From contig JAFXAN010000126.1 in assembly GCA_017517035.1 (NCBI GenBank), forward strand, positions 1-53,615: a DNA stretch of 53,615 nt. Direction: 5' to 3'. Within the stretch, counting starts at the first letter, position 1, and every line of letters starts with the position of its first letter. A program made the translations under genes and the position numbers. Under the pieces are notes generated by a model, which saw only the letters and a program-made list of their open reading frames with translations, ran no database searches and was not told the origin of the DNA. The stretch comes from Clostridia bacterium. Its GTDB lineage: Bacteria > Bacillota > Clostridia > Oscillospirales > CAG-272. Shown here piece after piece: positions 30,538 through 53,615 of the stretch.

Positions 30538-30557
30538 CAATGAAAGGGTAACAAAAT

Positions 30558-33587: not shown

Positions 33588-33597
33588 GCTGTAGGTT

Positions 33598-35554: not shown

Positions 35555-35578
35555 CAGTTTATATTTTTGAGGTATACC

Positions 35579-36430: not shown

Positions 36431-36499
36431 ATATAGAAAAATAAAAATTGTAAATTGTGACTTGCCGTTTTTTGGCAGGGTCCATAAAAAGGAGAAAAA

Positions 36500-37561: not shown

Positions 37562-37585
37562 AACAGGAAAATCAGGGGTGAAAAA

Positions 37586-38470
37586 ATGAAAATTTCGGTT
37601 AGTTCGTATTCCTTTAGCAGTTATATCCGCGGGGGAAAGATGACGCAATTTGATACAGTAAAAAAAGCTGCCGAGCTTGGTTTTGAGGGGATTGAATTTA
37701 CTACTCTTGTACCAAATTCATCTCCGACAAAAGAGGAAAAACTGGAATATGCAAGAAAAATAAAGGCAGAGGCTGAAAAGTGTGGAATAGAGATTGTTGC
37801 TTATTGCGTTAGTGCAAGACTTTTTCAGCTTACAAAAGAAGATAATGCTTCGGTATTGAAGGCAGTGCTTGACGAGGTTGATGTTGCGGCAGAGCTTGGC
37901 GTACCTGTTATGCGTCATGATGTCACATGGAGTGTAAAATTCGGTGAAAATGGAGAAAAAACTGTAAGCTTCGACCACCAGCTTCCTTTAATTACGGAAA
38001 ATGTCAGGAAAATTACCGAGTACGCAAAGAAAAAGGGTATTCGTACTTGTAGCGAAAACCACGGCCACGTAGCACAGGACAGTGATAGGATTGAAAGACT
38101 TTATAATGCTGTTGCAGATGAAAATTACGGTATTCTTGTTGATATCGGAAATTTTGCCTGTGTCGATGAAAATCCTATTACTGCGGTTTCAAGGGTTGCT
38201 CCTTATGCTTTTCATGTTCATGCAAAGGATTTTTATAAAACTAATTTTGGAGAAGAAAATACCCGTAGCGGTGGGCATATAACAAGAGCCTGCAATATTC
38301 TTCACGGATGCGTTATCGGTGACGGTATTATCCCCGTCAAGCACTGTATTGCCGTTCTCAAAAAAGCCGGTTATGATGGCTTTGTTTCGATAGAATATGA
38401 GGGGGCTGATGATTGTATTAAGGCACTTGCAAGAGGGCTTAATAATCTCAGGTCATATATCGAAGAATAA
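37586..38470 (+). CDS. Sugar phosphate isomerase/epimerase TIM barrel (AP_endonuc_2 family)
   Basis: GFEGIE, ENHG, DIGNF, HVHAKD, GYDGFVSIEYEG. Confidence 0.92.
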   Translation: MKISVSSYSFSSYIRGGKMTQFDTVKKAAELGFEGIEFTTLVPNSSPTKEEKLEYARKIKAEAEKCGIEIVAYCVSARLFQLTKEDNASVLKAVLDEVDVAAELGVPVMRHDVTWSVKFGENGEKTVSFDHQLPLITENVRKITEYAKKKGIRTCSENHGHVAQDSDRIERLYNAVADENYGILVDIGNFACVDENPITAVSRVAPYAFHVHAKDFYKTNFGEENTRSGGHITRACNILHGCVIGDGIIPVKHCIAVLKKAGYDGFVSIEYEGADDCIKALARGLNNLRSYIEE

Positions 38471-38481
38471 AAGGTGTAGCG

Positions 38482-38519
38482 AAAATGCATAAGTCCATTT
38501 TTTAGGACTTGTGCATTTT
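38482..38519 (+). terminator. Terminator closing the LRR/sugar operon
   Basis: aaaatgcataagtcc-N8-ggacttgtgcatttt. Confidence 0.75.
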
Positions 38520-38717
38520 GTCAGGACGGATATTTGAGGAATGATGGGTGTTTTGAACTCTACAAATAGGACCACATTTTTTGAATATAAATAACAAGTA
38601 TGTATACTTTTTTGATATCAAATAATAAGCAATGTTATGTCAATAAATAGAAATAAACTGACATTGATTTTTATATATTGATATGATAAGTTATAAAAAA
38701 TCTGTGAGGAATAAAAA

Positions 38718-40037
38718 ATGTCTTTTAAACCGCTTTTAACACAAATAAAACCCTCATATTTTTCGGTGGATTGCGGAATGTCTTATGTTATCCGAACCTC
38801 TGACGGTAAGTTTATCATAATTGATGCAAGCTTCGGTGAATATGATGAACCCCAAAAGCTTATCGAACTTTTAAGAGCGCAATCACCTGAGGGAAAAACT
38901 CCAACTGTTGCCGCCTGGTTTTTCACTCATCCTCATAACGATCACATCGGAACTTTTACCAAACTTTACGACATGGGAAAGGACGTAATTCGAATTGAAA
39001 AAGTTTATTATAACTTTCCCGAATATGATTGGTGCAAAAAGACCTGTAAGATTGATGATTTTTACGCCGCAATTGAATTCTTCGGTGCTGAAAAGATAAC
39101 TCCACAAACAGGAGATGTGATAAAAATTCAAGATGCTGTTTTTTATGTGATCTACACTTCTCAGGATTGTCCTAAGGACACTCAAAATGTCAATGAAACA
39201 TCTCTTGTTATGAAGATGACTCTCGGAAAATACAGTGTCATGTGGCTTGCTGATATACAGAAGTCCGGAGCTGAAGTGCTTCTTCAGAAATATCCGGTGG
39301 ACTTTTTTAAATGTGACATTATGCAAGTAGGACATCATGGTTATAACGGTGGCTCGGAAGAGTTGTACCGTGCAATAGATCCAAGCTACTTATTATGGCC
39401 TATTCCCGAATCACGTTATCTACAAGTGTTAGCATACGAGTGTAATAGCTTTTTGGCAAATTCCGAAAACATAAAAGAAATTTTTGTCAGCGGAATTGAG
39501 CAAACAACTTTTGATATGACAGAAGAAATACAATGTGCTTACCGTTATTTTCCCAAAAAGATATATTTTAATTTTAAAAGCGAGTGTATTAGTGAATGCA
39601 ACATTATGTGCTATAAGGGGGGCCTTATGGGATATGCAGCTCTTAGTGCAAGTTTTGAAAACAATGCAATATCGCTTGAATCCGGTGATATTCATTCACT
39701 TTTGCAGATGGTTCAACGAGGTCAGATTGCTGCAAGTGACAAATATAATTTTTCAATGATTGCTGTGCCTGATTCTCAATTTGAAAAACTTGGAATAATC
39801 TTTGATTGTCTCACACCTACAGAACCGACATCAATTAAAATCTATCCGATTAAACATAATAAAGCGGAAGAATTTTCACTTTCACTTAAAGTTGATAGAA
39901 ATAACGGAACAGCGATTCTCACTCTCAACGGAGACGAAATTTTCACAAAACTATCTACAAAGAAGCCTTGTCCGATAATTATTTATACACAAAAAGGCAA
40001 ACTTACAATCAAAAAGGCAATTTTTGAAAATCTATAA
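38718..40037 (+). CDS. Metallo-beta-lactamase-fold hydrolase (ComEC/Rec2-like) with C-terminal extension
   Basis: THPHNDH, NETSLV, WLAD, VGHHG. Confidence 0.82.
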   Translation: MSFKPLLTQIKPSYFSVDCGMSYVIRTSDGKFIIIDASFGEYDEPQKLIELLRAQSPEGKTPTVAAWFFTHPHNDHIGTFTKLYDMGKDVIRIEKVYYNFPEYDWCKKTCKIDDFYAAIEFFGAEKITPQTGDVIKIQDAVFYVIYTSQDCPKDTQNVNETSLVMKMTLGKYSVMWLADIQKSGAEVLLQKYPVDFFKCDIMQVGHHGYNGGSEELYRAIDPSYLLWPIPESRYLQVLAYECNSFLANSENIKEIFVSGIEQTTFDMTEEIQCAYRYFPKKIYFNFKSECISECNIMCYKGGLMGYAALSASFENNAISLESGDIHSLLQMVQRGQIAASDKYNFSMIAVPDSQFEKLGIIFDCLTPTEPTSIKIYPIKHNKAEEFSLSLKVDRNNGTAILTLNGDEIFTKLSTKKPCPIIIYTQKGKLTIKKAIFENL

Positions 40038-40094
40038 AATTAGCTATCACATTTGCTAAGCGTTGCATTTGTGACTGCTTTTATATAACAAATC

Positions 40095-40140
40095 AAGCGG
40101 ATGCTCAGTACCTTCGGTAATTTGCATCCGCTTTTTTCTT
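40095..40140 (+). terminator. Intrinsic terminator
   Basis: aagcggatgc ... gcatccgctt followed by a T-run. Confidence 0.75.
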
Positions 40141-40160
40141 TTTCGACCTGAGTTAATGAT

Positions 40161-40414
40161 TTAGTCCCTTTTATTCCATAACGATATTTCGGTCTACGGT
40201 CAGAATTGTATTTTTATTTGATTTCCCCTTTTTTAACAGCTCCAAATGAGATTTGTATTTTCTTAGTCTCACTACGGAATCCACAAAATTTTCAATTGCA
40301 AAATCTTCCATATCTTTCACAATAGACTCATATATCAACGCTCTCGGCTTGCTTCAAAGAGTTCTTCAGCGAGTCGAGTATTGTTTTGTTTCTGATATCT
40401 ATGATAGAAGCCAT
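40161..40414 (-). pseudogene. Gene remnant with a 28-codon start and an out-of-frame tail
   Basis: RBS aggtga precedes MASIIDIRNKTILDSLKNSLKQAESVDI*; a second frame continues YESIVKDMEDF... Confidence 0.35.
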
Positions 40415-40433
40415 TTTTAATCACCTAACAATT

Positions 40434-41018
40434 TTATGCCTTTACATATTTTTGATTGGAGCTCTTGGGTTTATCGGGCATAGTCAATTTTAATTTCCCA
40501 CTTTCAACAAGAGGGGCGACAATCTGTCCCATAACGTAATTACGGGATTTGCCTGCAAAAGAAATAAGTTCTGCTCTTGAACGAGGAACGGAACAAAATT
40601 CGATAATAGAATCGGTGAGAGAAGCAGACTCGGTGTGATACCCGTTCTTCATAATTACCTTGAACTCACCGTGTCTTACTGAAAACACGGGTACGGGAAG
40701 TCCTGCATTTAGGAACTCCATTCTCATTGTAGGAATGCCGGAATATCTGTTCTCTGTAATATTCAAAAGCTCAAGCATATTAGCGAGTGCGGCATTTCTT
40801 GTTTCGGGATGAACCTTTCCGAGCGCATCAATTGTAATCTTGCCATATAATCCACCGCTATTGGTGATTTCCATGCGGTCACGGTACATTTCTATACGAA
40901 TCGGTATGTTTTCGGTATGAATACTATAATCGCGGTGTACCAATGCATTGAGTATTGCTTCGCGCACTGCCTTGATGGGATATTCATTTTTATCTGCACG
41001 CTTGCCGTTAATATCTAT
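40434..41018 (-). pseudogene. 5'-truncated ATP-binding protein (RecG C-terminal/HATPase_c_4 type, normally with an N-terminal AlbA domain)
   Basis: EYPIKAVREAILNALVHRDY, RN..LA, ENRYSGIP, PDKPKSSNQKY. No RBS or start codon; the frame runs into a promoter. Confidence 0.75.
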
Positions 41019-41047
41019 AATATAACAGAAAATATAGAAATTGTCAA
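41019..41047 (-). promoter_or_regulatory. Orphaned sigma-A promoter abutting the truncated gene
   Basis: TTGACA-17 bp-TATATT with extended TG on the minus strand. Confidence 0.55.
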
Positions 41048-41191
41048 TATATGCACTCTTGTTTTGCCCAATTTTAATTATTGAAAATAGAGTTTGCACA
41101 CAAAAATGCAAGTTTGCACACTCGAGTGCAAATTAATGTGTAAACAAATAGATGGGGCGCAGACAAAACCGCCTGCGTCCATTTTTTGTAT

Positions 41192-41370
41192 TTAATTTGT
41201 ATTGGTCAATGTCTCGATAGCAATTTGCATACCGAGCTTGAATGCATACTCAAATATGGAAGCCTCAGCTAAACTCATATACTCACTCCAGCAGTCATGA
41301 AATTTTTCAAAGGCTTCCTTTTGTTCGTCAGAAAAGCTTTTTTTCGTGGTGACGTGCCATATAGCCTAAT
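41192..41370 (-). pseudogene. DUF6809-like small protein fragment, frameshifted
   Basis: LGYMARHHEK, then a shifted frame SFSDEQKEAFEKFHDCWSEYMSLAEASIFEYAFKLGMQIAIETLTNTN*. Confidence 0.55.
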
Positions 41371-41697
41371 CACATAAAAATAAAAGCACTACACTTTTTT
41401 CTTGTGATTTCTGTCATAATACTTTTACAGAGCAATGCGGTGTCCGGAACCGCAGGGATAAAAAAAGACTGTTCTTGAGACAGTCCTTATCTGTATGCAA
41501 TTTTTAATATTGCATTTTATGTACATGAGTATATATGACATAAATAAATATTTACATATGTAAAACATTTACATAAATAAAAATGGCAAAGTCTAAACAA
41601 ATGATGTGTTTTTTCCCGATATGTGATTTATAAAGCTCTGTATTTTTAGATATGTATTTGTACTTATGTTGAAAAAAGAAAAAGGAGAAAATGTAAA

Positions 41698-42636
41698 ATG
41701 AGCAACAATGTTGGACTTGAAATGAAAGAAAAAGCAAAAAGCGTGAACCTTATCGAATATCTGTTTGAGTATCACTCGGAGCTGATTTCTGAGGTGGGAC
41801 ATAACCGTTTTGTTCACCCTGATCACGATTCATTAGTGATTATGGAAAGAGGGTTCTTCCGTCACTCATCCCCCGATTGCAGAGGTGACCAGATACAGTT
41901 TTTAATGAATTTCCTTCATATGTCATTTCAAGATACGGTTCGTGAGCTTTGTGCACACGCAGACGAGTCGGGTATGAAATTGGAGGAGCATCAGCTTTCC
42001 CGCAATGCAAAGGAAAAGTTTTTTTACTTGCCGTACCCAACAGAAGACATTTATAAGCGTGTATGGGCGTATTTAACAACAAAGAGAGGCATACCTGCCG
42101 AAATAGTTCAAGAACTGTTCGATGCAACCTTGCTATATCAAGCAGAGGAATATGGGAACTGCGTATTTCATTATGACGGTGCAGGGAACTATGCGGAGAT
42201 AGTGGGGACATCAGATATCAAGTTTCGTCGATGTGCCGAAGGCTGTGCACCCGGAGCATATTGGGCTTGCGGAAATATAAATGGCGACACAGCATATGTA
42301 TGCGAGTCCGCAATTGACGCAGTAAGCCTTATGGCATTATATCGCAAATATTGTGATGGCGATCCTGCTTTTATATCTATAGGCGGGCTTAAAGACATTT
42401 CAATCAACAATGTACGAACCAAATACGAGAATGTCATTATCGCAGTAGATCGAGACGATGCAGGAGATTTCTGCTACAGTAAGCATAATGATCTCCCACG
42501 CATTCTTCCACCAAACATTCACGGAAAAAACGGAGAAAAGCTGAAGGATTGGAATGATGTTATAAGATACTGCGACAATGAAGAAAAAGTCAAAAAAAGT
42601 ATCGAGATATTTGCCGATATGGGCTTACCGTTTTAA
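41698..42636 (+). CDS. DUF3991/TOPRIM (primase-like) protein of mobile elements
   Basis: HPDHDSL, GDQIQFL, AYLTTKRGI, VCESAIDAVS, AVDRDDAG, KDWND. Confidence 0.85.
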   Translation: MSNNVGLEMKEKAKSVNLIEYLFEYHSELISEVGHNRFVHPDHDSLVIMERGFFRHSSPDCRGDQIQFLMNFLHMSFQDTVRELCAHADESGMKLEEHQLSRNAKEKFFYLPYPTEDIYKRVWAYLTTKRGIPAEIVQELFDATLLYQAEEYGNCVFHYDGAGNYAEIVGTSDIKFRRCAEGCAPGAYWACGNINGDTAYVCESAIDAVSLMALYRKYCDGDPAFISIGGLKDISINNVRTKYENVIIAVDRDDAGDFCYSKHNDLPRILPPNIHGKNGEKLKDWNDVIRYCDNEEKVKKSIEIFADMGLPF

Positions 42637-42701
42637 TAAAATTATTGCATCAAGGATTCTGACATAATTATAGTAGAGTATAAAGATAAGATTGGAGCTT
42701 A

Positions 42702-42800
42702 TTATTTCAGACCTTTCTCCAAGAACATCTTTTGCTTCTTTTTCATTGTTTTTAGGCTCCGATTACGAAACCACACATATAAAGGTCTGAAATTTCTCAT
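42702..42800 (-). CDS. Putative 32-aa basic peptide
   Basis: aggaggcggtgat RBS, then MRNFRPLYVWFRNRSLKTMKKKQKMFLEKGLK*. Confidence 0.3.
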   Translation of the reverse strand: MRNFRPLYVWFRNRSLKTMKKKQKMFLEKGLK

Positions 42801-42914
42801 ATTTTGCCGATCACCGCCTCCTAAAAAAATGGGTGATCGGCTACCCTAAAATACGCGCGGTGGTGTGGGAGGACAGCTAATCAACTAATGGTTAGCTTCC
42901 TACTCGATTGCTTA

Positions 42915-43850
42915 TCATTTATTTTCATTATGTTCCTTCAAAGCACCGGGGCCATCCTTATAATTTTTAATTCGTTCTCTGATTTCGCTCGGAGAGAACC
43001 CCTCTTCCTTTGCGAACATACGGCTGAAATAGCTTGGATTATCATATCCGAGAGAATAGGCGATTTCAGCAATCGAAAGCTCCGATGTTCGCAGAAGCTC
43101 AATGGCGTTTGAGATCTTATTTTTTGTGATATACTGAATGGGAGTTATTCCCAGATGCTTTCTGAAAAGGCGTATCATGTGCTGAGGTGAAAGATGGCAA
43201 AGCTCGCACAGTTGTTCTGTGGAGATTTTTTTATTATAATTCTGTTGAATAAATGAAAGTGCCTGACGTAGCGGTGGCGGTATGTCAGGGGGCACCGTGC
43301 TGCTTGCGGTGATTGAAATGACGTTAATTGATACCGAGGATAAAAATTCAACTAACTTCAGCGAGATAAGCAGCGGTGAAACATAGGTTGCTGAAATTTT
43401 TTTTTGTGGGATTTGACGGAGAAGTGTGCAAAGCTCATCAAAACCATCTCCTGTGTTTCCATGATGATTTATATAAAGGTGAGTTGGCAGAAGCGAAAGC
43501 CTTTTTTGAACAGAAAGCGATGCATTTTTGTTAATTATCTCCTTAAGCTCGTTTTCTGCTTCCTTGTTTGAGAGAGAATCAATGGTAGACCTTAGCATAA
43601 AATGAACATAAAGGAGTTTACAGCTTTTGTCATTTACAGGACGGCGAATATATTCTTTGCTTGGGGGTATGAGTATATAATCCCCCTTGCTTAATGTTAA
43701 ATTATTATCATCTATATCTATTCTGCAAGCCCCCTCGGTTATCAAAATGAGAATTGCGCGTCTGTCTGCACATCTCCATAGTGTTTTCCTTTCTATTTCA
43801 TATGTTTCTTCGATTTCCGGAAGTGTTTGCAGAGAGAGTTTATAAACCAT
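42915..43850 (-). CDS. AraC/XylS-family regulator
   Basis: Cupin-like N-terminus; double HTH ending LGYDNPSYFSRMF; RBS gggggg before ATG 43850. Confidence 0.93.
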   Translation of the reverse strand: MVYKLSLQTLPEIEETYEIERKTLWRCADRRAILILITEGACRIDIDDNNLTLSKGDYILIPPSKEYIRRPVNDKSCKLLYVHFMLRSTIDSLSNKEAENELKEIINKNASLSVQKRLSLLPTHLYINHHGNTGDGFDELCTLLRQIPQKKISATYVSPLLISLKLVEFLSSVSINVISITASSTVPPDIPPPLRQALSFIQQNYNKKISTEQLCELCHLSPQHMIRLFRKHLGITPIQYITKNKISNAIELLRTSELSIAEIAYSLGYDNPSYFSRMFAKEEGFSPSEIRERIKNYKDGPGALKEHNENK

Positions 43851-43880
43851 AGTTCCCCCCCATTTCGGTTGCTTTTTGAA

Positions 43881-43977
43881 AATGTTAAAATTGTGCATAT
43901 GAATGTTCAAATTCGATATTTACAAAATTTATTTTTTAACCTAAAATAATTATAACAGATTTTTCTGTTTATGTAAA
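43881..43977. promoter_or_regulatory. Overlapping opposed promoters with a tandem AraC-type repeat
   Basis: aatgttaaaatt (43881) and aatgttcaaatt (43902); plus-strand TTTACA-17-TAAAAT (43919-43947); minus-strand TTTACA-17-TATAAT (43977-43949). Confidence 0.65.
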
Positions 43978-44007
43978 GATATAAATCAAAAAAACGGAGA
44001 AAAAATT

Positions 44008-45102
44008 ATGTCAGCAAAAAAATGGAAGGTCGCAGTTGTTGGCTGTGGCACGTTCGCAAACGATCAGTATTTCCCCAATATAGCCAAGGAGGCAAATGCA
44101 GTCTGCGTTGCAGCTTGCGATATCGTACCCGAAAGAGCGCAGAGCGCTTGCGAGAAATACGGTATTCCCGAATGGTATACAAGTGTATATGAAATGTTAG
44201 AAAAGTGCGATTTTGATATCGCCATCGATGCAACCTCAATTCAGGCGCACCATGAGGTCAATATGGCGATTCTCGGGGCGGGCAAGCATCTTATCAGCCA
44301 AAAACCCGCTGCTCCCACGGTCGAATTGCTTACCGAGCAGATAGAGCTTGCAAAAAATAAGGGTGTTAAATTTGTGTGCGTACCGATTCATCCCATGAGA
44401 TTTGACCTTGCTGTTGCAAAGCAGATGATAGCAGATGGAGCCATCGGAGAGCTTTCATATATCAAGTGTAATGTTGCTCATGGAGGCCCTAACTATTTCC
44501 AGTACCGCGATGCTGACCCAACGTGGTTCTTCGAGGACGGTGCAGGAGCACTTGTTGATATGGGTGTTCACGGTATTCAGATAGTGACACATATGTTTGG
44601 CCCGGCAAAGAAGATCAGCTGTCTTGCGGCGGTTACAACACCCGAGAGAACGGTACGTTCAGGCAAATTTGACGGCAAAAAGATAAAGGCAGACAAGATT
44701 CCCGATCAGTATTTTATTAACATAACCTTTGCAAACGGAAAGATAGGCTTCATTGACACAGGATTTTCACAGAAGGCTTCAAAACAGCCTCAGCTTGAGA
44801 TCTACGGTAGCGAGGGAACAATTTCTCTTACATCAGGATATATGCAAAATCCTATGCCGAGCGTCTATATGGACGCACCCGAACGTGGAATCCGAGGTTG
44901 GGTAGAGCCTATGACATGGACGAGTATTCCGAAGAAGCTCATCAGCCAGTGCTGCTGTCTCCGTGATATAATCGAAGCCATTGAGGGTGAATGTGATCCT
45001 ATGCTGACACCCGAGCACGCAAGACACGTGCTTGAGATCATGTGTAAGATCCCCGAGGCGGTAAAAACGGGTGCTACCGTTGAGCTTGAAACAACATTTT
45101 AA
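44008..45102 (+). CDS. Gfo/Idh/MocA oxidoreductase (QKP variant)
   Basis: VVGCG, SQKP, GALVDMGVH. Confidence 0.92.
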   Translation: MSAKKWKVAVVGCGTFANDQYFPNIAKEANAVCVAACDIVPERAQSACEKYGIPEWYTSVYEMLEKCDFDIAIDATSIQAHHEVNMAILGAGKHLISQKPAAPTVELLTEQIELAKNKGVKFVCVPIHPMRFDLAVAKQMIADGAIGELSYIKCNVAHGGPNYFQYRDADPTWFFEDGAGALVDMGVHGIQIVTHMFGPAKKISCLAAVTTPERTVRSGKFDGKKIKADKIPDQYFINITFANGKIGFIDTGFSQKASKQPQLEIYGSEGTISLTSGYMQNPMPSVYMDAPERGIRGWVEPMTWTSIPKKLISQCCCLRDIIEAIEGECDPMLTPEHARHVLEIMCKIPEAVKTGATVELETTF

Positions 45103-45114
45103 GAGGTGATTCGA

Positions 45115-46194
45115 ATGGATAAATTAAGAGTTGCATTTTTCGGAGCAGCACATCCCCATGTGGATGCCATTATGGAAACAATAGTGAACAATTCCGAGGA
45201 TTTTGAAATTATCGGGTTTGCCGAGGTTTCCTTTCCACCGAGAGACCCGTTTACATATGACGAAAAACACAGCATAATTGTTGGCACCTTCAAATGTCCC
45301 GAATATGACGATTGGAAAACTCTTGCTTCTCTTAATGTGGACCTTGCGGTGGTAAATTCGGACAATGCGGCAAGAGAGGAGATATGCTGTTATCTGCTTT
45401 CAATGGGAATAAATGTTCTTGACGAAAAGCCTATGGCGATGAATTATGCCGCGGCAAAGAGAATGTGCGATATTGCAAAGGAAAACGGTGTTCATATGCT
45501 CACAAACTGGCCTATTGCATGGTTTCCTGCGTTCCGTCTTGCCAAAAAGCTTCTTGACGAGGGCAGAATAGGAAAGCTGATGAAGGTCACATACAGAAGC
45601 CCCGCAACATGGGGGCCGTTCTCATACAGAGAATTTGTAAAATATCCAACAGAGCATTTTAAGGATAGCTGGTGGTATAAGGCTGAATACGGAGGCGGTT
45701 CTATCCTTGACTATGCTTGCTACGGTGCGATACTTTCCACATGGATGTTCGGAAAAAGAGCCGAAAGAGTTTGCTGCATGACAAAGCAGTTTGTAACAAC
45801 ATTTTCAGATGTTGAGGACTGGAGCGCAATGCTTCTCGATTTCGGTGACGGAGTTGGAATGATCGAAGGCTCGTGGGCAACATATAACAGTGGAGAGGTT
45901 CCTTCGGGGCCTATACTTCACGGAACGGAGGGAACTATCGTCTGCGAGAGACATTCGACAATAGTTAAGGTTTATGAAGGCAAGAGTCACACCCCCGTAG
46001 AGCCTACGGAGATTATAGATGCAGGCATTGCAGACCAGTCAACAGCACTTGGCAAACATCTTGCAAGAGTGATTCGAGGCGAGGAAGAGCCGGTGGATAT
46101 GCTCAGCACCGAGGTTAATCTTTCGGTGGTAGCCGCTCTTGATGCGGGAATAAAATCCGCAAAAACAGGAAAAACAGTAGAAGCAGAAAAATAA
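45115..46194 (+). CDS. Gfo/Idh/MocA oxidoreductase
   Basis: GAAHPH, DEKP, GGGSILDYACY. Confidence 0.9.
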   Translation: MDKLRVAFFGAAHPHVDAIMETIVNNSEDFEIIGFAEVSFPPRDPFTYDEKHSIIVGTFKCPEYDDWKTLASLNVDLAVVNSDNAAREEICCYLLSMGINVLDEKPMAMNYAAAKRMCDIAKENGVHMLTNWPIAWFPAFRLAKKLLDEGRIGKLMKVTYRSPATWGPFSYREFVKYPTEHFKDSWWYKAEYGGGSILDYACYGAILSTWMFGKRAERVCCMTKQFVTTFSDVEDWSAMLLDFGDGVGMIEGSWATYNSGEVPSGPILHGTEGTIVCERHSTIVKVYEGKSHTPVEPTEIIDAGIADQSTALGKHLARVIRGEEEPVDMLSTEVNLSVVAALDAGIKSAKTGKTVEAEK

Positions 46195-46213
46195 TTTTTA
46201 GGAGATAAATGAT

Positions 46214-47332
46214 ATGAGTAAGCTCAGAGTTGCCGTAATAGGTACCGGAATGATAGCAAACAGTGCACATTTTCCTGCACTTAACGATCTTAGAAAAGAA
46301 GGACTTATCGAGGTTGTAGGCGTTGCGGACATCCGTGAGGAGGTTGCGGCAGAAACTGCAAAGAGACACGATGTTCCGAATTATTATAAAGACCCCCAGA
46401 AGATGCTTGACGAGCTTAAACCCGATTTTGTTGCGGTATGCACACCAAATATGTACCATAAGGAATGGACAATAAAGGCTCTTAAAGCCGGAGCACACGT
46501 TGCCTGCGAGAAGCCTATGGGACTATCTGTCTCCGATGTTAAGGAGATGTGGCAGACTGCAAAGGACTGCGGAAAGATGCTTTTCCCTTGTCAGTGCATG
46601 AGATGGAGAAATTATATGCAGCAGTCAAAGATTCTTGTGGATAGCGGTGAGCTTGGAGATGTTTATTTCTCGGATATCGAGTTCATCAGAAGAATTGGAA
46701 TCCCTACGTGGGGTATGTTCCATATGAAGGAGCATAATTTCGGTGGCCCGTTCTGCGATCTCGGAGTTCATCTTATCGACTCACTTCTATGGATTGTTGG
46801 AGATAAGAAGGTCGAGGCGGTTTCGGGAAGTGCATATACAAAAATCGCAAATCAGGGGGAGGATATTCTTCTCAGCATTGCGGAGAGCGGCGCATATTCG
46901 GGCGCATTCACCCCAAGAAAATATGATTATAAGGAATTTAACGTTGAGGAATTTTCAACAGGTTTTATGCGTCTTGAAGGAGGCATGAGCGTTAATTTTA
47001 AGTTCTCCTGGGCGCTCAATCTTCCCACAACAAATCTTGATATGGTAATCTGCGGTGATAAGGGCGGTCTTTCGGTAAATAAGGAAAAACTCTATAAGAA
47101 TATCGGCAAATTCCAGTCGGAATGTGATATGAAATGGTTTGATAACGGTGCATATAAGGGAGTTGCATTCGAGCAGCACAGATATATGTACAGAAATATC
47201 ATAAACACACTTGCAGGTAAGGAAGAATACCTCATAAAAGAGCATCAGAATATTGAGGTCACAAAGGCAATAGAGTGCTTCTATAAGTCTGCAGAGCTCC
47301 GTCGCGAGGTAAGAGTGGAGGAGCTTAAATGA
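46214..47332 (+). CDS. Gfo/Idh/MocA oxidoreductase
   Basis: VIGTGMI, CEKP, GGPFCDLGVH. Confidence 0.93.
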   Translation: MSKLRVAVIGTGMIANSAHFPALNDLRKEGLIEVVGVADIREEVAAETAKRHDVPNYYKDPQKMLDELKPDFVAVCTPNMYHKEWTIKALKAGAHVACEKPMGLSVSDVKEMWQTAKDCGKMLFPCQCMRWRNYMQQSKILVDSGELGDVYFSDIEFIRRIGIPTWGMFHMKEHNFGGPFCDLGVHLIDSLLWIVGDKKVEAVSGSAYTKIANQGEDILLSIAESGAYSGAFTPRKYDYKEFNVEEFSTGFMRLEGGMSVNFKFSWALNLPTTNLDMVICGDKGGLSVNKEKLYKNIGKFQSECDMKWFDNGAYKGVAFEQHRYMYRNIINTLAGKEEYLIKEHQNIEVTKAIECFYKSAELRREVRVEELK

Positions 47333-48426
47333 GTATTCGTGCCGTAATTTGCGGCTGTGCCCATATGCACGTAAATGAGGTCGCCCTTTACATAAGCGAG
47401 CAAACATCAACAGAGCTTTGCGGTGTTGCGGATATCGCTCCCGAATTTCCCGAAAATACCGATAAAAGATATACCCGTGCATGGAATTTCAAAAATGTTG
47501 TTGAAAAATATTCTGCAAAGCCTTTTGATGATTACAAAAAAATGCTTGATGAGATAAAGCCCGATGTTGCTTACCTTCTCTGCGAGAACTATCGCAAGGC
47601 AGAAATAGCAGAAGAAATTGCAAGGCGCGGTATTAACGTCATCATCGAAAAGCCTATGGCAACAACGGCTTCAGAGGCTCGAAAAATCGTTTCATTAAAA
47701 GAAAAATACGGAGTTGAGATATACGTCAACTGGCCCGTTACTTGGCGTAGATACATCCGTGAGATGAAGGCAACTGTTGATAGCGGAAGGCTTGGAAAGA
47801 TTCAGAAGCTTCGATATCTCAACGGTCATACAGGACCTCTGGGCAAGGGCGCAAAGCACCGCGGCGTAAGCGCAAAGGCTGAAGAAATGACAGACGAGGA
47901 AAGAGGACGTACTTGGTGGCACCAAAAGAAGTGCGGCGGCGGTGCGTATCTTGATATTCTTTGTTACGGTTGCTATTTCAGCAGATGGCTGTTTGGAAAG
48001 CTTCCCGTTGATATTATGTCTGTTGGCGAAAATCTAAACACTCCTTTTGGTGACACAGAAGATAATATTGCTGCAATTCTACGATTTGAGGATGGATTTG
48101 CGGTAGCCGAGGGCACGTGGACTACTCCCAGAAGAAGAATGCCCACAGGCCCCGAGATCATTTGCTCCGACGGTGTTGTCTGGTGTGACGGAGTTCCGGA
48201 TGGCGAGGCATTTGTTGCGGCTTCCGACATTTACGGAAATGACATTGACGCAGATCATCAGAAGGACGACGAGCACTTTCGCAATATGCCTTGGCACTAT
48301 GCTGCACATGTGAAGCAGGGAATGCCCATTCACGAAACACTTACAGCAGAGTTCAATGCGGATGTGGTTGCCATGATCGAAGCGGCTGAACGCTCAAATG
48401 CGAGCCGCAAAGCAGAAAAAGTGTGA
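47329..48426 (+). CDS. Gfo/Idh/MocA oxidoreductase
   Basis: GCAHMH, IEKP, GGGAYLDILCY. Confidence 0.9.
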   Translation: MSIRAVICGCAHMHVNEVALYISEQTSTELCGVADIAPEFPENTDKRYTRAWNFKNVVEKYSAKPFDDYKKMLDEIKPDVAYLLCENYRKAEIAEEIARRGINVIIEKPMATTASEARKIVSLKEKYGVEIYVNWPVTWRRYIREMKATVDSGRLGKIQKLRYLNGHTGPLGKGAKHRGVSAKAEEMTDEERGRTWWHQKKCGGGAYLDILCYGCYFSRWLFGKLPVDIMSVGENLNTPFGDTEDNIAAILRFEDGFAVAEGTWTTPRRRMPTGPEIICSDGVVWCDGVPDGEAFVAASDIYGNDIDADHQKDDEHFRNMPWHYAAHVKQGMPIHETLTAEFNADVVAMIEAAERSNASRKAEKV

Positions 48427-49223
48427 TGAATAAAGAAAATATAAGCGCACGAGTCACCGAAATAGAAAGATTTTCGGTGCACGACGGTCCCGGGATACGT
48501 ACTGTGGTCTTTCTCAAAGGCTGTCCTTTAAATTGTGCTTGGTGTCATAACCCCGAGTGTATCTCATTTGAAAAACAAACCTTGGTATATACGGAAAAAT
48601 GTATCGGCTGCGGCAAATGCGATCAGGGGTGCTATTCGGGCGCAAGAGTTGAGTGCGGAAAAGAAATGACCGTTGATCAGGTGATGGAAGAGGTGCTCCA
48701 GGATCAGATATATTATGGAGAGCACGGAGGTCTGACTATTTCAGGCGGTGAGCCTTTGGCACATAGAGAATTTACAATGGCTCTCATTCGCGCATGCCGA
48801 GAAAAAAATATAAAGGTAGGTATCGAGACCTCGCTTTACCGTTTTGACGAAGAGTTGCTTTCTTCGCTCGACCTGATAATGGCCGATATGAAGATATTTG
48901 ATTGTGATATTCATCGCAAATGGGTAGGAGTCGGAAACGAGGAGATAAAAAACAATCTCTGCCGAGCAAACGAACTTGGTATACCCATGATTGTTCGCAC
49001 ACCTGTGATCTGTGGAATAAATGACAACACGGAAAACGTAAAGCGAACAGCTGAATTTTTGCGTGAGCTTAAAAACGTAACGTCCTATGAGCTTTTGCCT
49101 TATCATCCATTGGGAGTTTCCAAGGCAGAGGCACTTGGGATAAAGCAAACAGAATTTAAAACACCCTCACAAAGTCAAATGGAGGAACTTAATAAATATG
49201 CTGACATATCAAGACAGACTTGA
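48423..49223 (+). CDS. Glycyl-radical enzyme activase (radical SAM)
   Basis: HDGPGIRTVVFLKGCPLNCAWCHNPE, SGGEP, ELLPYH; short CIGCGKCDQGC insert. Confidence 0.95.
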   Translation: MMNKENISARVTEIERFSVHDGPGIRTVVFLKGCPLNCAWCHNPECISFEKQTLVYTEKCIGCGKCDQGCYSGARVECGKEMTVDQVMEEVLQDQIYYGEHGGLTISGGEPLAHREFTMALIRACREKNIKVGIETSLYRFDEELLSSLDLIMADMKIFDCDIHRKWVGVGNEEIKNNLCRANELGIPMIVRTPVICGINDNTENVKRTAEFLRELKNVTSYELLPYHPLGVSKAEALGIKQTEFKTPSQSQMEELNKYADISRQT

Positions 49224-51414
49224 CGCTATGCGTCGTACCAAGATCGAGCATACGCTGGCAAAAAAAGAACAGAACGGATATACCGATCTTGACGATTTCG
49301 GTACTGTTCCGCTACCCGAGGACTATTATGTTGAGCCTTGGTACAACAGCGAGAACGGTAGCTTTTATGGACTTGAAGGTATGAGCGAGAATTTCTGCAG
49401 AGTAATGGCTGCACATCCGGCCTATGTCGATCCGATGGAAATGCTTTGCGGCAGATGGCGTGATATGCTTGTGAACTATCGCGGAGATATACATTATCTT
49501 CCCAATTGGATAAAAAAGAACGAAAAGCTTTATAACTTTATCGCAAGTGGTGCAACAGCACAGTGGAGCAAGCGTTGGGACGAAAAACGGTTTCCATACG
49601 ACGATCTCAAGCCTCTCCAGAAAAAGTACAATATTCAGACCGGTATTGACGGAGATGCTCATTTTGCCTGCGATTACCGCATTGGTCTTGAGCTTGGCTT
49701 TGGCGGACTTCTTGACAAAATAGAAAAATATCGCAAGATCAATACGGATAAAAAGGACTTTTATGATGCCGAAGAGCGTTGTGTTCGTGCCATTATTGAT
49801 TTTATTGACAGACATATAGAAAAGATTCGGGAGATGATTCCGTTAGAGGATCGGCCCGAGATCAAGGAAACTCTTTTGAAGATGCTTTCCGTATGTGAAA
49901 ATATTCGTCTGGGAGCGCCCAAGACTTTTCATGAGGCTTGTCAATGGGTAAGCTTTTTCAATTGTGCAGCACGAGTTTTCACTCGTGACGGTGCAGGTTT
50001 CCAGCTGGATACTATCTTGTATCCTTACTATGAAAACGATATAAAGAGCGGTGAGCTTGATGACGAAAGAGCAAAATTCCTCATCGCAAATCTTCTGCTC
50101 ATTGATCCTCATTACTATCAAATCTCCGGTGTTGATGCCGAGGACCGCGATCTGACAAACCATCTGTCCTATCTTATTCTTGATGCGGCAGATTCTATCA
50201 ATATTTCCTGTAATCTTACGGTCAGAGTTCATGAAAATTGCGATCAGTCGTTTCTGCACCGTGCGGTGGAATATTTGTTTAAGAATAAAAACGGTTGGCC
50301 TCGTTTTTGCGGTGATAAGAACCTATGCGAGGGCTATATGCGCAACGGTGTGGACAAACAGACAGCCAGAGAGCGTATTGCTGTAGGTTGTAATTGGATG
50401 TGTGTTCCCGGTAAGGAATTTCCAATGAACGATACGGTCAAGATCAACGTGGCAAAGGTTCTTGAAGTAGCACTTGAGGAAATGAAAAATGAAAACGAAA
50501 GAAGCGCAGAATACCTCTATTCCATTTTCGAAAAGCATCTTAAAAAAGCTATTGAGGTCACCGCAGCAGGTGTAAACCACCATCTTGACCACGTTCACGA
50601 CGTAACTCCGGAGCTTATTATGAACCTTATGTTCACCGGATCCATTGAAAAGGGACTCGATGCCTCTCAATGTGCCGAGCTGTTCACGGTGGGGGTTGAC
50701 GGAGCAGGTCTTGCTGTTGTTGCCGACTCTTTTGGCGCTATCTCTACAAGAATTGAAGAAGAAAAGGCTCTTTCTTGGGATCAGCTCTATGAGGCTCTTG
50801 AAAGTGATTTTGCGGACGAGCGAATTCGCTTGATGCTCAATTCTTCGCCCAAATATTGTCATGGAAACACTGTGTCCGATGAGTGGGCGAAACGTTTGAC
50901 GAAAACTTGGACAAAGCTTGTAAAAGCTCAGAAAATGCCCAATGGCAGACAGCTTGTTCCCGGTTGGTTCTCCTGGGCGCGCAGTATTGAATACGGGTCT
51001 ACCGTCGGTGCTATGCCTAACGGAAGAAAAGCATACGAGCCAATCTCCCACGGTGCAAATCCCAATCCGCATTTCAGAGTTGACGGGGCGGTCACTGCAC
51101 AGTCGAACGGAATTGCATCCGTTCAGTGCGGATATGGTAATACGGCTCCGCTTCAGATCGAGTTTGACCCTAAAATCACAATGGAGCAGGGCGGTGTTGA
51201 CATCGTTCTTGACTTCATCAAGGCTCATATTGCAAGCGGTGGAACACTGATAAATATTAACATTCTCGATTCGGAAAGGCTCATGGAGGCCCACAAGGAT
51301 CCCACGCTTCATCCCGATCTTGTGGTGCGTGTGACCGGATTTACGGCATATTTTGCCTCACTGTCACCCAAATTCCGTCAGCTTGTTGTTGATCGTTTCC
51401 TTGAAGGAATGTAA
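49198..51414 (+). CDS. Glycyl-radical enzyme of unknown substrate (PFL superfamily)
   Basis: VVRVTGFTAYF (Gly714), AVGCNWMC (Cys398), GAMPNGRKA; adjacent activase. Confidence 0.92.
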   Translation: MLTYQDRLDAMRRTKIEHTLAKKEQNGYTDLDDFGTVPLPEDYYVEPWYNSENGSFYGLEGMSENFCRVMAAHPAYVDPMEMLCGRWRDMLVNYRGDIHYLPNWIKKNEKLYNFIASGATAQWSKRWDEKRFPYDDLKPLQKKYNIQTGIDGDAHFACDYRIGLELGFGGLLDKIEKYRKINTDKKDFYDAEERCVRAIIDFIDRHIEKIREMIPLEDRPEIKETLLKMLSVCENIRLGAPKTFHEACQWVSFFNCAARVFTRDGAGFQLDTILYPYYENDIKSGELDDERAKFLIANLLLIDPHYYQISGVDAEDRDLTNHLSYLILDAADSINISCNLTVRVHENCDQSFLHRAVEYLFKNKNGWPRFCGDKNLCEGYMRNGVDKQTARERIAVGCNWMCVPGKEFPMNDTVKINVAKVLEVALEEMKNENERSAEYLYSIFEKHLKKAIEVTAAGVNHHLDHVHDVTPELIMNLMFTGSIEKGLDASQCAELFTVGVDGAGLAVVADSFGAISTRIEEEKALSWDQLYEALESDFADERIRLMLNSSPKYCHGNTVSDEWAKRLTKTWTKLVKAQKMPNGRQLVPGWFSWARSIEYGSTVGAMPNGRKAYEPISHGANPNPHFRVDGAVTAQSNGIASVQCGYGNTAPLQIEFDPKITMEQGGVDIVLDFIKAHIASGGTLININILDSERLMEAHKDPTLHPDLVVRVTGFTAYFASLSPKFRQLVVDRFLEGM

Positions 51415-51431
51415 AGTAGGAGAACTCTGAT

Positions 51432-52712
51432 TTGGAACATATTAAGTACGAAAAATATTTGACAGTAAAGAAAAAATATGATGTGATCGTGTGTGGAGGC
51501 GGTGTTGCAGGTGTTGCGGCAGCCGTAAGCTCTGCTAAAAACGGATTGTCAACTCTTCTTCTTGAAAAAAGCAATATTCTCGGCGGTCTTGGTACACTCG
51601 GACTTATAAATCTGTTTGTTCCTATGTGTAATGGACGTGGAAAGCAAATAATTTTTGGGCTTGCCGAAAAATGGCTTCGGAAAAGTGCGGAGCTTGGCTG
51701 GGATACCATTCCCTTTGAGTGGAAAAACGGTGAACCTAAAGAAGAGACCAAGGTTCGGTACATACAAAGATATTCTCCGACGATTTTCGCATATCAGCTT
51801 ACAGAAGAGATAACAAAAAGCGGTGCAGATATTCTTTTTGATTGCATGGCGATCGATCCTGTAATGGAGGGCAATGTTTGCCGTGGTGTCATAACCGAAA
51901 GCAAAGGCGGGACCGAGTTTTACGGATGCCGAATACTGATCGATACCACGGGAGATTGTGATGTTTTGCGACGCGGTGGCATACCGTGTGAAAACGGAGA
52001 AAATTTCTTTTCCTTCTTTACAAAAATGGTGGATCTCGAAAGCTGTAAAAAAGCGGTTGAAATGGGGGATATACGATATTTGTATAAGGATCTCAGCGGA
52101 GGCAGTATCAACCTTTTTGGTGACGGTCAACCTGATGACATACCGCGCTGGTCAGGACTTTCCGCAGAAAATGTGACTGATTATATCGTTCGAAATCATC
52201 TTTTGATTCTCGAAAAACTGAAAAACAGCGATAGAAAAACTCGAGATATCGTCACCTCGCCCGGGATGCCTCAGTTCAGAACCACCTGCCATATTAGGGG
52301 CGATTATTCTCTGAAGCTTTCCGACGCATACCGCCATTTTCATGATTCAATATGTGCGATTAACGATTTTGAGCATAGAGATCATCTTTTTGAGATTCCG
52401 TTTCGTTGTCTCGTTAGAAGTGACTATCCCAATATAATCACCGCAGGCAGAAGCGCGGATGGCACGGGCTACGGTTGGGATCTGCTTCGTGTAATACCTC
52501 CGGCTATCCTTACAGGACAAGCAGCAGGGGAAGCTGTTTCACTTGCTCTTAAGACAGGGAAAAATATTGCTGAGCTTGATATAAAGGCTCTGCAAAATAC
52601 CCTTGAAAAGAACGATGTAATGATTCACTTTCCTGATGAATATATACCCGAAGACAGAACGGTAAATATACACGGTAAAAATGCCGCAGAAATTGATGGC
52701 GGTCATATGTAA
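51432..52712 (+). CDS. FAD-dependent oxidoreductase, paralog of 33598-34830
   Basis: YDVIVCGGGVAG; shares FVPMCNGRGKQIIFGLAEKWLR and LRVIPPAILTGQAAGEA with the paralog. Confidence 0.9.
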   Translation: MEHIKYEKYLTVKKKYDVIVCGGGVAGVAAAVSSAKNGLSTLLLEKSNILGGLGTLGLINLFVPMCNGRGKQIIFGLAEKWLRKSAELGWDTIPFEWKNGEPKEETKVRYIQRYSPTIFAYQLTEEITKSGADILFDCMAIDPVMEGNVCRGVITESKGGTEFYGCRILIDTTGDCDVLRRGGIPCENGENFFSFFTKMVDLESCKKAVEMGDIRYLYKDLSGGSINLFGDGQPDDIPRWSGLSAENVTDYIVRNHLLILEKLKNSDRKTRDIVTSPGMPQFRTTCHIRGDYSLKLSDAYRHFHDSICAINDFEHRDHLFEIPFRCLVRSDYPNIITAGRSADGTGYGWDLLRVIPPAILTGQAAGEAVSLALKTGKNIAELDIKALQNTLEKNDVMIHFPDEYIPEDRTVNIHGKNAAEIDGGHM

Positions 52713-52731
52713 AAAGAAAAGAATAAGGATT

Positions 52732-52821
52732 ATGAAAAAGCTGTTTGTATTGTTTAATATTCTTTCACTGATGCTTGTGCTATCCTTTTCGGTAAACACG
52801 GGAGATTGTGATGTGTTATGA
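52732..52821 (+). pseudogene. Signal-peptide-only stub of a secreted protein, interrupted by the IS
   Basis: RBS aagga, then MKKLFVLFNILSLMLVLSFSVNTGD; runs into TGT at 52807 and stops. Confidence 0.45.
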
Positions 52822-53527
52822 TACAATTGATAGGTGACAAATAAAAAAGGAAATAGCGACCAGATGTGATATAATGGTAATAACCACAAAACCAAAAAAT
52901 CACAAAGGAGCTATTTCCAATGAATATTATAACATCAGAAGCCCACTTTCGTCAACGGGTATTGAAATATTCGTTAAAAAATGGAGTGACAGCAGCGAGC
53001 ATACGGTTCAAAAGAAGCAGACAAGCGATATACGAATGGAAAAGGAAGTGGGACGGAAAAAGTTGGCACAGCTTAGTAGAAAAGAGCCATCGTCCACATC
53101 ATCATCCAAATGAACACACGGCAGAAGAGAAAGAAATGATCTTACGCCGTTATCCCCGATACAAAGACGATATGATGCTTCTTTGGAATTCATTGCGCAA
53201 GAGCGGGTATACACGAAGCTATACAAGCTTGGTAAGGGTAGTGCGCAAATATGGGTGCAGCCGAAGATTAAAAAGCGTACAGCAAGGAAAAATAAGCCTT
53301 ATACAAGAGCAGAATATCCCGGCCAAAAGGTACAGGTGGACGTAAAGTTTGTACCCTCTTATTGCGTTACACATGGGCAAAAATTCTATCAGTACACCGC
53401 AGTTGATGAATGTACTCGCTGGACATACAGAGAAATGTATGAGGAACACAGCACAGACGGTTCGGTGCGTTTCCTTGTGAATTTAATAAAAAGCGGTCCT
53501 TTTCCAATAAGAGAAATACAAACGGAC
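52807..53527 (+). mobile_element. IS481-like insertion sequence, partial
   Basis: Candidate TGT left end at 52807; transposase downstream; right end not seen. Confidence 0.65.
52920..53527 (+). pseudogene. Frameshifted, truncated DDE (rve) transposase
   Basis: HTH plus SHRPHHHPN in the first frame; from ~53252 a second frame reads YPGQKVQVDVKFVP...YQYTAVDECTR...IQTD; similarity then ends. Confidence 0.85.
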
Positions 53528-53615
53528 GATGACAGACCGTTTGACCGATTTGCAAAAGCGGACATATTGGTCGTCGTCAACGCACGGATATGGGCTTGGT
53601 GTCAGATGTCCGATG

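Follow-up and report, generated by a model that had tools for sequence, protein, structure and literature searches.

A Cys-x-Trp glycyl-radical enzyme linked to sugar-ring dehydrogenases and probably to an undescribed step of anaerobic carbohydrate breakdown

Glycyl-radical enzymes (GREs) account for much of the difficult chemistry in anaerobic gut metabolism, and to our knowledge only a few dozen of them have known reactions. Here we describe a GRE and its operon at the end of a contig from a Clostridia bacterium (GenBank assembly GCA_017517035.1, contig JAFXAN010000126.1). The entire contig, 53,615 nucleotides long, is the window referred to throughout. Open reading frame (ORF) listing and family scans identified, at positions 42915–52712, an AraC-family regulator, four Gfo/Idh/MocA dehydrogenases (Gfo1 to Gfo4), a glycyl-radical activase, the GRE and a PF12831 flavoprotein. 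The link between this GRE and genes for sugar-ring dehydrogenases and other carbohydrate functions is specific and recurs across loci. Judging from sequence comparisons, it probably catalyzes an undescribed step of anaerobic carbohydrate breakdown. Our favored reading, held with moderate confidence, is that AraC controls an operon for the catabolism of a pyranose-type carbohydrate of plant or host origin, such as a glycoside, an oligosaccharide residue or an anhydro-sugar.

The only characterized GREs that act on a sugar ring are PflD and YbiW (8yjo, 8id0 and 8id7), which open the rings of 1,5-anhydromannitol-6-phosphate and 1,5-anhydroglucitol-6-phosphate. They share the ten-stranded GRE fold and a dedicated activase with the window GRE and provide its best structural match (TMq 0.85). 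However, they are only 19–21% identical to it, and their substrates are 6-phosphates, whereas the window operon contains no kinase or phosphotransferase system (PTS) gene. No Gfo/Idh/MocA partners are reported for them in the accessible part of a June 2026 review (PMC13450708). That part distinguishes seven GRE classes and describes a Cys-x-Glu motif kept in all six C–O eliminases, in CutC, in the C–S lyases and in the isomerases HplG, YbiW and PflD; the Glu is bonded to the substrate and, in the isomerases, is the base that deprotonates the C2 hydroxyl. The window GRE has Cys-x-Trp instead. The B12-independent glycerol/1,2-propanediol dehydratases (1r8w, 5i2g and 9rco) resemble it in giving the second-best sequence match, in an aligned His/Asp pair and in TIGR01774 being its best NCBIfam model. 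They differ in that glycerol dehydratase has Glu435 in place of the Trp and is about 50 residues longer (787 versus 738 amino acids), the TIGR01774 score falls far below the cut-off, and the window locus is devoid of microcompartment and aldehyde-processing genes. The best solved sequence match is PFL2 of Archaeoglobus fulgidus (2f3o), which is of similar size (776 amino acids) but has a GCVE Cys loop; its entry title names no function, so it offers no functional lead.

For the dehydrogenases, the relevant systems are DgpABC, which cleaves C-glycosides, and the related 3-keto-glycoside routes of levoglucosan dehydrogenase LgdA and of the Bacteroides BT_2158/2159 families; Gfo3 resembles DgpA, and Gfo1 resembles DgpA1 and levoglucosan dehydrogenase. 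A further likeness to DgpA-type systems is the xylose-isomerase-like TIM barrel encoded in sister GRE operons. In DgpA-type systems, an ionic, metal-dependent TIM-barrel lyase cleaves after C3 oxidation, whereas the window operon has a GRE and an activase and no TIM barrel. Published main texts open without subscription yielded no description of a Cys-x-Trp GRE, or of a GRE with Gfo/Idh/MocA or DgpA partners; in PMC7660257, GREs appear only as a similarity-network example. An earlier, sequence-only reading of this DNA held that characterized GREs do not sit in such a context, which agrees with the accessible part of PMC13450708 and with the literature searched. The features of the locus are as follows.

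42915–43910, minus strand: AraC-family regulator (PF00165 2e-22, PF12833 6e-22, PF02311 3e-5) with a cupin/AraC_binding N-terminal sensor domain
43911–44007, between the strands: divergent 97-bp AraC/Gfo1 control region with promoter-like hexamers at 43919–43947 (plus) and 43977–43949 (minus)
44008–45102, plus strand: Gfo1 (PF01408, PF22725, PF02894), A type, DgpA-like
45106–46194, plus strand: Gfo2 (PF01408, PF22725, PF02894), B type, atypical nucleotide loop
46214–47332, plus strand: Gfo3 (PF01408, PF22725, PF02894), A type, probable pyranoside C3 dehydrogenase by sequence
47329–48426, plus strand: Gfo4 (PF01408, PF22725, PF02894), B type
48423–49223, plus strand: glycyl-radical activase, radical SAM, short form (TIGR02494)
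49198–51414, plus strand: GRE of the Cys-x-Trp clade, 738 amino acids (PF02901 2e-96, PF01228 4.6e-10)
50386–50412, plus strand: GRE Cys loop G-C398-N-W400-M-C-V-P-G with the thiyl radical site, from translation and alignment
51328–51342, plus strand: GRE Gly loop R-V-T-G714-F with the glycyl radical site, from translation
51432–52712, plus strand: FAD-dependent oxidoreductase (PF12831 6e-51)

The GRE displays the features of the PFL-like superfamily: an RVxG motif, a catalytic Cys within a barrel fold and a dedicated radical SAM activase. Its Gly loop, RVTG714F, is intact, and both Gly714 and Cys398 are invariant in all 87 aligned representatives. The Cys-x-Glu motif of GRE 1,2-eliminases and isomerases is absent. 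The Cys loop reads GCNWM, and HMMER aligned Trp400 to the Glu of GCVE in both of the best solved sequence matches, 2f3o (1e-51) and 1r8w (1.1e-49). Because Trp400 stands in place of that Glu, the GRE is predicted to be neither an eliminase nor an isomerase of known kind. His155 and Asp412 aligned with His164 and Asp447 of the glycerol dehydratase 1r8w. The GRE has no adjacent Cys–Cys pair and is thus not a formate lyase. A PFL-like two-Cys mechanism via Cys402 was considered and rejected, as only the closest group conserves this Cys, the rest of the clade having Ala, Ser, Asn or Gly there.

The GRE scored below every NCBIfam cut-off, including those of its best match TIGR01774 (278.6 versus 678.2 bits) and of TIGR01255 (58 versus 994), and far below those of equivalog models such as HypD, CutC, HpsG and HpfG. 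An AlphaFold2 model built on 87 sequences reached a pLDDT of 93.8. Querying Foldseek with this predicted structure returned only GREs among the matches listed, at identities of 16–22%, with PflD (8yjo, 21%) at the top. The TMq of the model was 0.78–0.85 to the listed solved PFL-like GREs and 0.72–0.73 to 4-hydroxyphenylacetate decarboxylase. High identity to a characterized GRE, which the sequence-only reading had named as evidence against an undescribed pathway, was seen neither in the sequence comparison nor in the structural one.

The Trp loop is widespread. A word-indexed protein search found 1760 proteins among 8000 scored candidates, and the best 120 of these are 75–100% identical to the GRE over 99–100% of its length; among these 120 few are named, and the names given are 'formate acetyltransferase' or 'pyruvate formate lyase family protein'. 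An exhaustive HMMER search returned 4047 proteins at E values up to 0.001. Its full-length representatives include about a dozen at 38–53% identity (476–842 bits), after which identity falls to 31% (293 bits). Cys-x-Trp is present in 27 of the 87 aligned representatives and Cys-x-Glu in 48, and all but three of the 28 nearest relatives of the GRE have Cys-x-Trp. When GREs from fetched loci were clustered, the motif GC[NHS]W occurred in 73/73 members of the cluster designated c0. Relative to Cys-x-Glu proteins, R259, E407, L477, N621 and P651 are conserved specifically in the Cys-x-Trp clade, and the same comparison gave 100% versus 25% for D412, 100% versus 4% for E472 and 93% versus 15% for T713. 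The Cys-x-Trp substitution thus marks a large uncharacterized clade and is no one-off. Its members come from mammalian gut, termite, digester and marine bacteria. Cultured carriers include Qingrenia yutianensis, with a homolog at least 75% identical, and, among the 80 loci described below, Clostridium leptum DSM 753, Neglectibacter timonensis, Hominenteromicrobium mulieris and Chakrabartyella piscis. Flammeovirga kamogawensis and Persicobacter psychrovividus are cultured marine carriers.

To compare gene neighborhoods, 80 loci were collected by contig scan, comprising 27 whose GRE shares at least 65% identity (tier A) and 53 whose GRE shares about 44–52% (tier B); counts were made on loci with at least 4 kb upstream, 20 in tier A and 35 in tier B. 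Gfo genes were found by tblastn in 17/20 tier-A loci (phmmer on our own ORF calls gave 16/20, L024 being lost since antisense ORFs were kept), and 18/35 tier-B loci have a Gfo gene within 6 kb. The dehydrogenases are thus kept in close and sister-group loci alike, the outcome that the sequence-only reading had proposed checking for. The full order of a divergent AraC gene followed by Gfo1, Gfo2, Gfo3, Gfo4, activase and GRE recurs in five other genomes (L008, L009, L016, L024 and L039), which rules out a chance juxtaposition of genes. In orthologous loci, Gfo3 homologs are 77–90% identical. Shorter forms retain Gfo3 and Gfo4 (L026) or the Gfo4 type alone (L011, L013 and L023), and L021, L022 and L025 have an extra xylose-isomerase-like TIM barrel and a third Gfo type. 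The PF12831 flavoprotein adjoins the module in L008, L012 and L023 and lies nearby in L011 and L013; it is a recurrent accessory gene of the module. Operon architectures are mixed and do not track the GRE in a quick tree, which carries SH-aLRT supports only.

Other carbohydrate genes recur around the relatives: a sugar ABC transporter, xylose-isomerase-like TIM barrels, GH26, CBM_4_9, SusC/D with GH47, GH130 and a sulfatase. The loci of Clostridium leptum and Neglectibacter timonensis run from AraC and a sugar ABC transporter through two Gfo genes, a TIM barrel and a further Gfo gene to the activase and the GRE. Further tier-B loci contain ABC permeases, a cupin, a 366-amino-acid protein, UxaC and a mannitol-dehydrogenase-family gene. 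Within tier B, one subgroup (L052, L061, L064 and L079) presents activase, GRE, a cupin-like protein of 254–260 amino acids, a 360–371-amino-acid protein with no Pfam match and AraC; L052 has no cupin, and the L061 sequence stops short of any AraC gene. Upstream, both L061 and L079 encode the glucuronate isomerase UxaC and a protein of the mannitol-dehydrogenase family.

Three tier-A loci (L017, L019 and L020) have no Gfo genes and encode instead a second GRE with a GCGEY loop, the activase being common to both. This second, unrelated GRE has 22% identity and an RVGGF loop. The three genes (L017 7044–12214, L019 7061–12214, L020 7060–12211), in ruminant-gut metagenome-assembled genomes, are flanked by CBM_4_9 proteins of 650–1070 amino acids with no recognized catalytic domain; one of those in L017 has choline-binding repeats, and L019 has a separate dockerin/transglutaminase-like protein. 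The large CBM_4_9 proteins and proteins without Pfam match in L002 had no useful solved relatives.

A plasmid collection added two Bacteroidota homologs, 46% and 45% identical, on large replicons of Flammeovirga kamogawensis and Persicobacter psychrovividus:

L089 13114–18069: module on p1 of Flammeovirga kamogawensis
L090 11552–16564: module on pPP6 of Persicobacter psychrovividus

The Flammeovirga GRE, the sole one of the two Bacteroidota proteins that was aligned, has the loop VGCNWMS. Both loci have SusC/D, and GH47, activase, GRE and a hypothetical protein of 136–139 amino acids lie together; none of the 80 other loci encodes a homolog of this small protein. GH130 and a sulfatase accompany the module in one species, a GH5-type 'cellulase family' enzyme and AraC in the other. 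The SusC/D loci extend the carbohydrate link. Neither locus has an annotated Gfo gene within 14 kb, so Gfo partners are not obligatory. A link to mannan, suggested by GH26 beyond a second GRE copy of the host and by GH47, GH130 and GH5 in the Bacteroidota loci, was also considered; homologs occur in only 2/80 loci (GH26 in L035 and GH130 in L036), which makes it a lead and no finding.

The host genome (3.07 Mb in 165 contigs, 97% complete) served as an internal control. Its ORFs include, by phmmer, 20 GRE-like, 7 activase-like, 21 Gfo-like, 14 PF12831-like and 96 AraC-like proteins. Cys-x-Trp occurs in only three of these GREs, namely the window copy, a copy on contig C4 (76% identical) and one on contig C35 (48%). 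A Gfo gene lies within 6 kb of all three, compared with 0/17 of the other GREs; with 21 Gfo ORFs in 3.07 Mb, about 0.1 is expected per 14-kb neighborhood. The C4 operon (10073–23803, L091) encodes AraC, a TIM barrel, a 417-amino-acid Gfo, Gfo3-like and Gfo4-like proteins and the GRE, followed downstream by a GH26 enzyme between two LRR_5 proteins. It has no activase gene, and its GRE may depend on the activase of the window operon. The window and C4 GREs fall in one five-row clade of the quick tree (SH-aLRT 97). On C35 (3056–8155, L092), a 660-amino-acid fusion of a TIM barrel and a Gfo lies directly upstream of the activase and the 48% identical GRE, an arrangement that speaks for coupling between the lyase-type and dehydrogenase steps of the module.

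With 20 GREs and 7 activases, the GRE repertoire of this host is unusually large. The GREs are distributed over contigs C4, C8, C21, C28, C35, C42, C51, C65, C72, C111, C121, C122, C125, C126, C141 and C142, and an AraC gene lies within 6 kb of 18/20. Their Cys loops are varied and include GCYEP, GCNQI, GCNEP, TCVEV, GCVEP, ACWEN, GCNMI, GCYNF, GCQES, ACCTF and GCTES.

The window operon itself is compact. The gaps between its seven plus-strand genes are 3, 19, −4, −4, −26 and 17 bp, and the AraC gene is transcribed divergently, 97 bp before Gfo1. All eight genes were recovered as the tightly packed operon, divergent from AraC, that had been described from the sequence. A divergent AraC gene is also present in orthologous loci; the window regulator scored under all NCBIfam equivalog cut-offs. 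The 97-bp region has promoter-like hexamers pointing in both directions. Promoter-like sites in the scanned stretch numbered 24, compared with 20.7 ± 4.6 in shuffles, i.e., no excess, and it is the position of the hexamers alone that is suggestive. Pfam and NCBIfam scans of 42915–52712 identified no transporter, kinase, aldolase, TIM-barrel lyase or PTS gene. By Pfam, the operon contains no PF01261 gene, the nearest PF01261 TIM barrel in the window being at 37586–38470, 5.4 kb upstream of Gfo1, and the 20 window ORFs at 24230–53345 include no microcompartment shell protein, aldehyde dehydrogenase or alcohol dehydrogenase.

The activase matched TIGR02494 with 273.5 bits (cut-off 174.35), and its gene overlaps that of the GRE by 26 bp. 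It has CX3CX2C at residues 34–41, followed by a single CX2CX2CX3C at residues 60–70 and a lone Cys78, and is 266 amino acids long compared with the 293 positions of the model. Activases of PFL2-type GREs carry a ferredoxin-like insert with two CX2CX2CX3C motifs.

Clustering resolved the four dehydrogenases into two A/B pairs, Gfo1 with Gfo3 and Gfo2 with Gfo4. The sequence-only reading had described four different dehydrogenases; four are indeed present, but they are not all of unrelated types. Gfo3 matched DgpA (7xr9) at 1.2e-52 over residues 1–362 of 372 and DgpA1 (9m3d) at 3.3e-49, followed by 3e18 at 4.7e-23. According to the accessible part of PMC9939296, DgpA oxidizes the C3 hydroxyl of the sugar, and its glucose pocket consists of H186, K100, D182, R159, E264, F189, F223 and W166. 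Relative to this partial description, Gfo3 keeps six of the seven residues that could be mapped (K100, R159, W166, D182, H186 and F223), the catalytic Lys, Asp and His included, with Asn in place of E264 and F189 unmapped. This similarity points to C3 oxidation of a pyranose as the likely activity of Gfo3. Gfo1, which has the motifs GxGxxA, QKP and D-x3-H, matched DgpA1 (9m3d) over its full length at 7.7e-25, DgpA (7xr9) at 1.2e-19 and levoglucosan dehydrogenase (6a3f) at 7.7e-17.

Gfo2 and Gfo4 belong to an uncharacterized Gfo/Idh/MocA subfamily. In place of GxGxxG they have G-A-A-H-P-H and G-C-A-H-M-H, respectively, and both have D-x3-Y for D-x3-H while keeping EKP. Solved matches are weak for Gfo2 (6nor 5e-15; 1,5-anhydro-D-fructose reductase 2glx 1e-10) and for Gfo4 (2e-10), and an Atlas look-up of Gfo4 gave generic names only. 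Solved sequence matches of the flavoprotein cover its N-terminal FAD motif only. The nearest folds to its AlphaFold2 model (pLDDT 76) appear to be geranylgeranyl-reductase-like and other two-domain flavoproteins, at TM 0.35–0.47 among the listed matches.

The surroundings of the operon suggest a possible mobile context. A DUF3991/Toprim primase-like gene (41698–42636) lies upstream, as does a HATPase_c_4 gene (both within 40434–42636), and IS481-like transposase fragments begin downstream at 52920 and run off the contig end at 53615. Contigs of four sequencing runs were compared with window positions 38000–53615: X6 and X7 covered them fully, while X9 left 38000–40083 uncovered and was patchy to 42688. 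Loose ends lay near 42858–42908 and 52742–52854. Movement of the operon as a cassette was considered from this pattern and set aside, since uncovered parts in contig data cannot carry that reading. A foreign island, considered from the GC profile of the window (0.45 versus 0.37), was also rejected, the operon having 44.2% GC against 42.7% for the whole genome. Further upstream, 24230–38470 holds a second sugar-oxidation cluster without a GRE. It begins with a pair of giant BspA-type LRR_5 proteins, one of them bearing an acetyl-xylan-esterase domain, and a GNAT-like gene, continues with a paralog of the PF12831 flavoprotein (33598–34830), a histidine phosphatase and an EamA transporter, and ends with a Gfo/Idh/MocA gene (36500–37561) and the xylose-isomerase-like TIM barrel.

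Based on these comparisons, we propose the following pathway. The A-type Gfo1 and Gfo3 would oxidize a ring hydroxyl, probably at C3, to a ketone. The GRE, with a radical on Gly714 and a thiyl on Cys398, would then abstract a ring hydrogen and bring about a redox-neutral bond cleavage or rearrangement, most likely C–O cleavage next to a carbonyl or carbinol that is out of reach of ionic β-elimination by TIM-barrel lyases. The sugar ring would stack on Trp400, which would not act as a base, and the clade-conserved His155 and Asp412, and possibly Glu407 or Glu472, are candidates for acid–base catalysis. The B-type Gfo2 and Gfo4, together with the flavoprotein, would reduce or re-oxidize the product for entry into ordinary sugar metabolism. 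The reverse order, with the GRE acting first and the dehydrogenases on its keto product, would fit the data equally well.

Several points weigh against this proposal. We infer the substrate, the product and the order of steps from gene context, and the need for a radical step is an argument and no observation because ionic elimination is open to many 3-keto sugars. Gfo neighbors are not universal, being absent from 3/20 tier-A loci, from 17/35 tier-B loci within 6 kb and from both Bacteroidota loci. Since several relatives have no adjacent Gfo genes, the GRE substrate need not be a Gfo product. Conversion of several sugars by the dehydrogenases into a single GRE substrate, as the sequence-only reading supposed, would be just one among several conceivable sequences of events. 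The pathway as encoded is incomplete, the operon having no transporter, kinase, aldolase or TIM-barrel lyase. Gfo2 and Gfo4 might not be ordinary dehydrogenases, given the absence of GxGxxG and of the D-x3-H His, and assigning the flavoprotein a function from its fold was abandoned, as the moderate-confidence model gave only generic two-domain flavoenzymes. Glu407, Glu472, Arg259 and Asn621 are candidate pocket residues from conservation.

A more far-reaching version of the proposal, which we advance only tentatively and consider doubtful, is that Cys-x-Trp GREs constitute a new mechanistic class that performs radical chemistry on a neutral sugar ring alongside DgpA-like C3 dehydrogenases, with Trp400 stacking on the ring and the base moved to a clade-specific Glu or Asp. 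Under that version, the bond broken would adjoin the ring carbonyl or carbinol and would be an ether or glycosidic C–O bond on the non-anomeric side, a ring C–O bond or a C–C bond, each beyond the ionic β-eliminases. Radical enzymes would then belong to the mainstream of anaerobic breakdown of sugars from hemicellulose or glycosides in marine, rumen, gut and termite bacteria.

Salvage of anhydro-sugars would instead make the GRE a ring-opening isomerase of the YbiW/PflD type acting on an unphosphorylated 1,5-anhydrohexitol or anhydroketose, with the Gfo enzymes interconverting 1,5-anhydrofructose, anhydroglucitol and anhydromannitol. The top structural match of the GRE, PflD (8yjo and 8id0, TMq 0.85), is in line with this, as are the matches of Gfo2 (1.1e-10) and Gfo3 (1.7e-13) to the 1,5-anhydro-D-fructose reductase 2glx, and the accessible part of 10.1101/816074 gives an anhydro-enulose as the sugar product of DgpBC-type cleavage. 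We nevertheless regard such salvage as unlikely. The isomerases keep the Cys-x-Glu whose Glu deprotonates the C2 hydroxyl (PMC13450708, accessible part), a position occupied by Trp in the window GRE; identity is 19–21%; the operon has no PTS, kinase or aldolase; and the 2glx matches are far weaker than the match to DgpA.

Catabolism of cyclitols is, in our view, quite improbable. Here the Gfo enzymes would be inositol-type dehydrogenases for several stereoisomers, and the GRE would replace the ionic dehydratase or ring-cleavage step of the iol pathway. Bacillus subtilis has more than one inositol dehydrogenase of the Gfo type, IolG is the best NCBIfam model of Gfo1 and Gfo3 (77 and 85 bits, far under the cut-off of 355), and sister operons encode PF01261 TIM barrels of the IolE/IolI fold family. 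Gfo3, however, scored 182 bits to DgpA and 73 to the myo-inositol dehydrogenase 3cea, and it has kept the DgpA glucose pocket. The CBM_4_9, GH26, GH47, GH130 and SusC/D neighbors favor glycosides over free cyclitols, and the GRE has no second conserved Cys for PFL-like C–C cleavage.

An ordinary dehydratase of small 1,2-diols, of the glycerol or propanediol type, with its base moved and the Gfo genes as unrelated neighbors, would account for 1r8w as the second-best match (1.1e-49), for the alignment of His164/Asp447 with His155/Asp412 and for the invariance of Asp412 in the clade. That explanation is very unlikely: the GRE is about 20% identical to such enzymes and is missing the Cys-x-Glu, the 20 window ORFs scanned include no shell protein, aldehyde dehydrogenase or alcohol dehydrogenase, and the Gfo linkage is conserved and specific to the Cys-x-Trp clade. 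That the GRE is a formate-lyase acting on pyruvate or another keto acid, which is what the public names of its homologs ('formate acetyltransferase', 'pyruvate formate lyase family protein') imply, is hardly tenable and already contradicted by the TIGR01255 score (58 versus 994 bits), the missing Cys–Cys pair, a Cys402 that is unconserved outside the closest group and the match of PFL (1h16) to the C-terminal third only (1.4e-15). A decayed, non-functional GRE or a chance cluster, for which nothing positive speaks beyond the missing catalytic Glu, is no more credible and is already contradicted by conservation, the 120 listed homologs being 75–100% identical over 99–100% of the length, the Gly and Cys invariant and the architecture present in many genomes.

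Should the GRE prove to carry out a radical step of carbohydrate breakdown, the catabolism of glycans and glycosides would gain a new type of reaction and the GREs an eighth functional class. Through this operon, a large and highly conserved branch of the GREs, hitherto unstudied, becomes accessible, and its cultured carriers make it directly testable.

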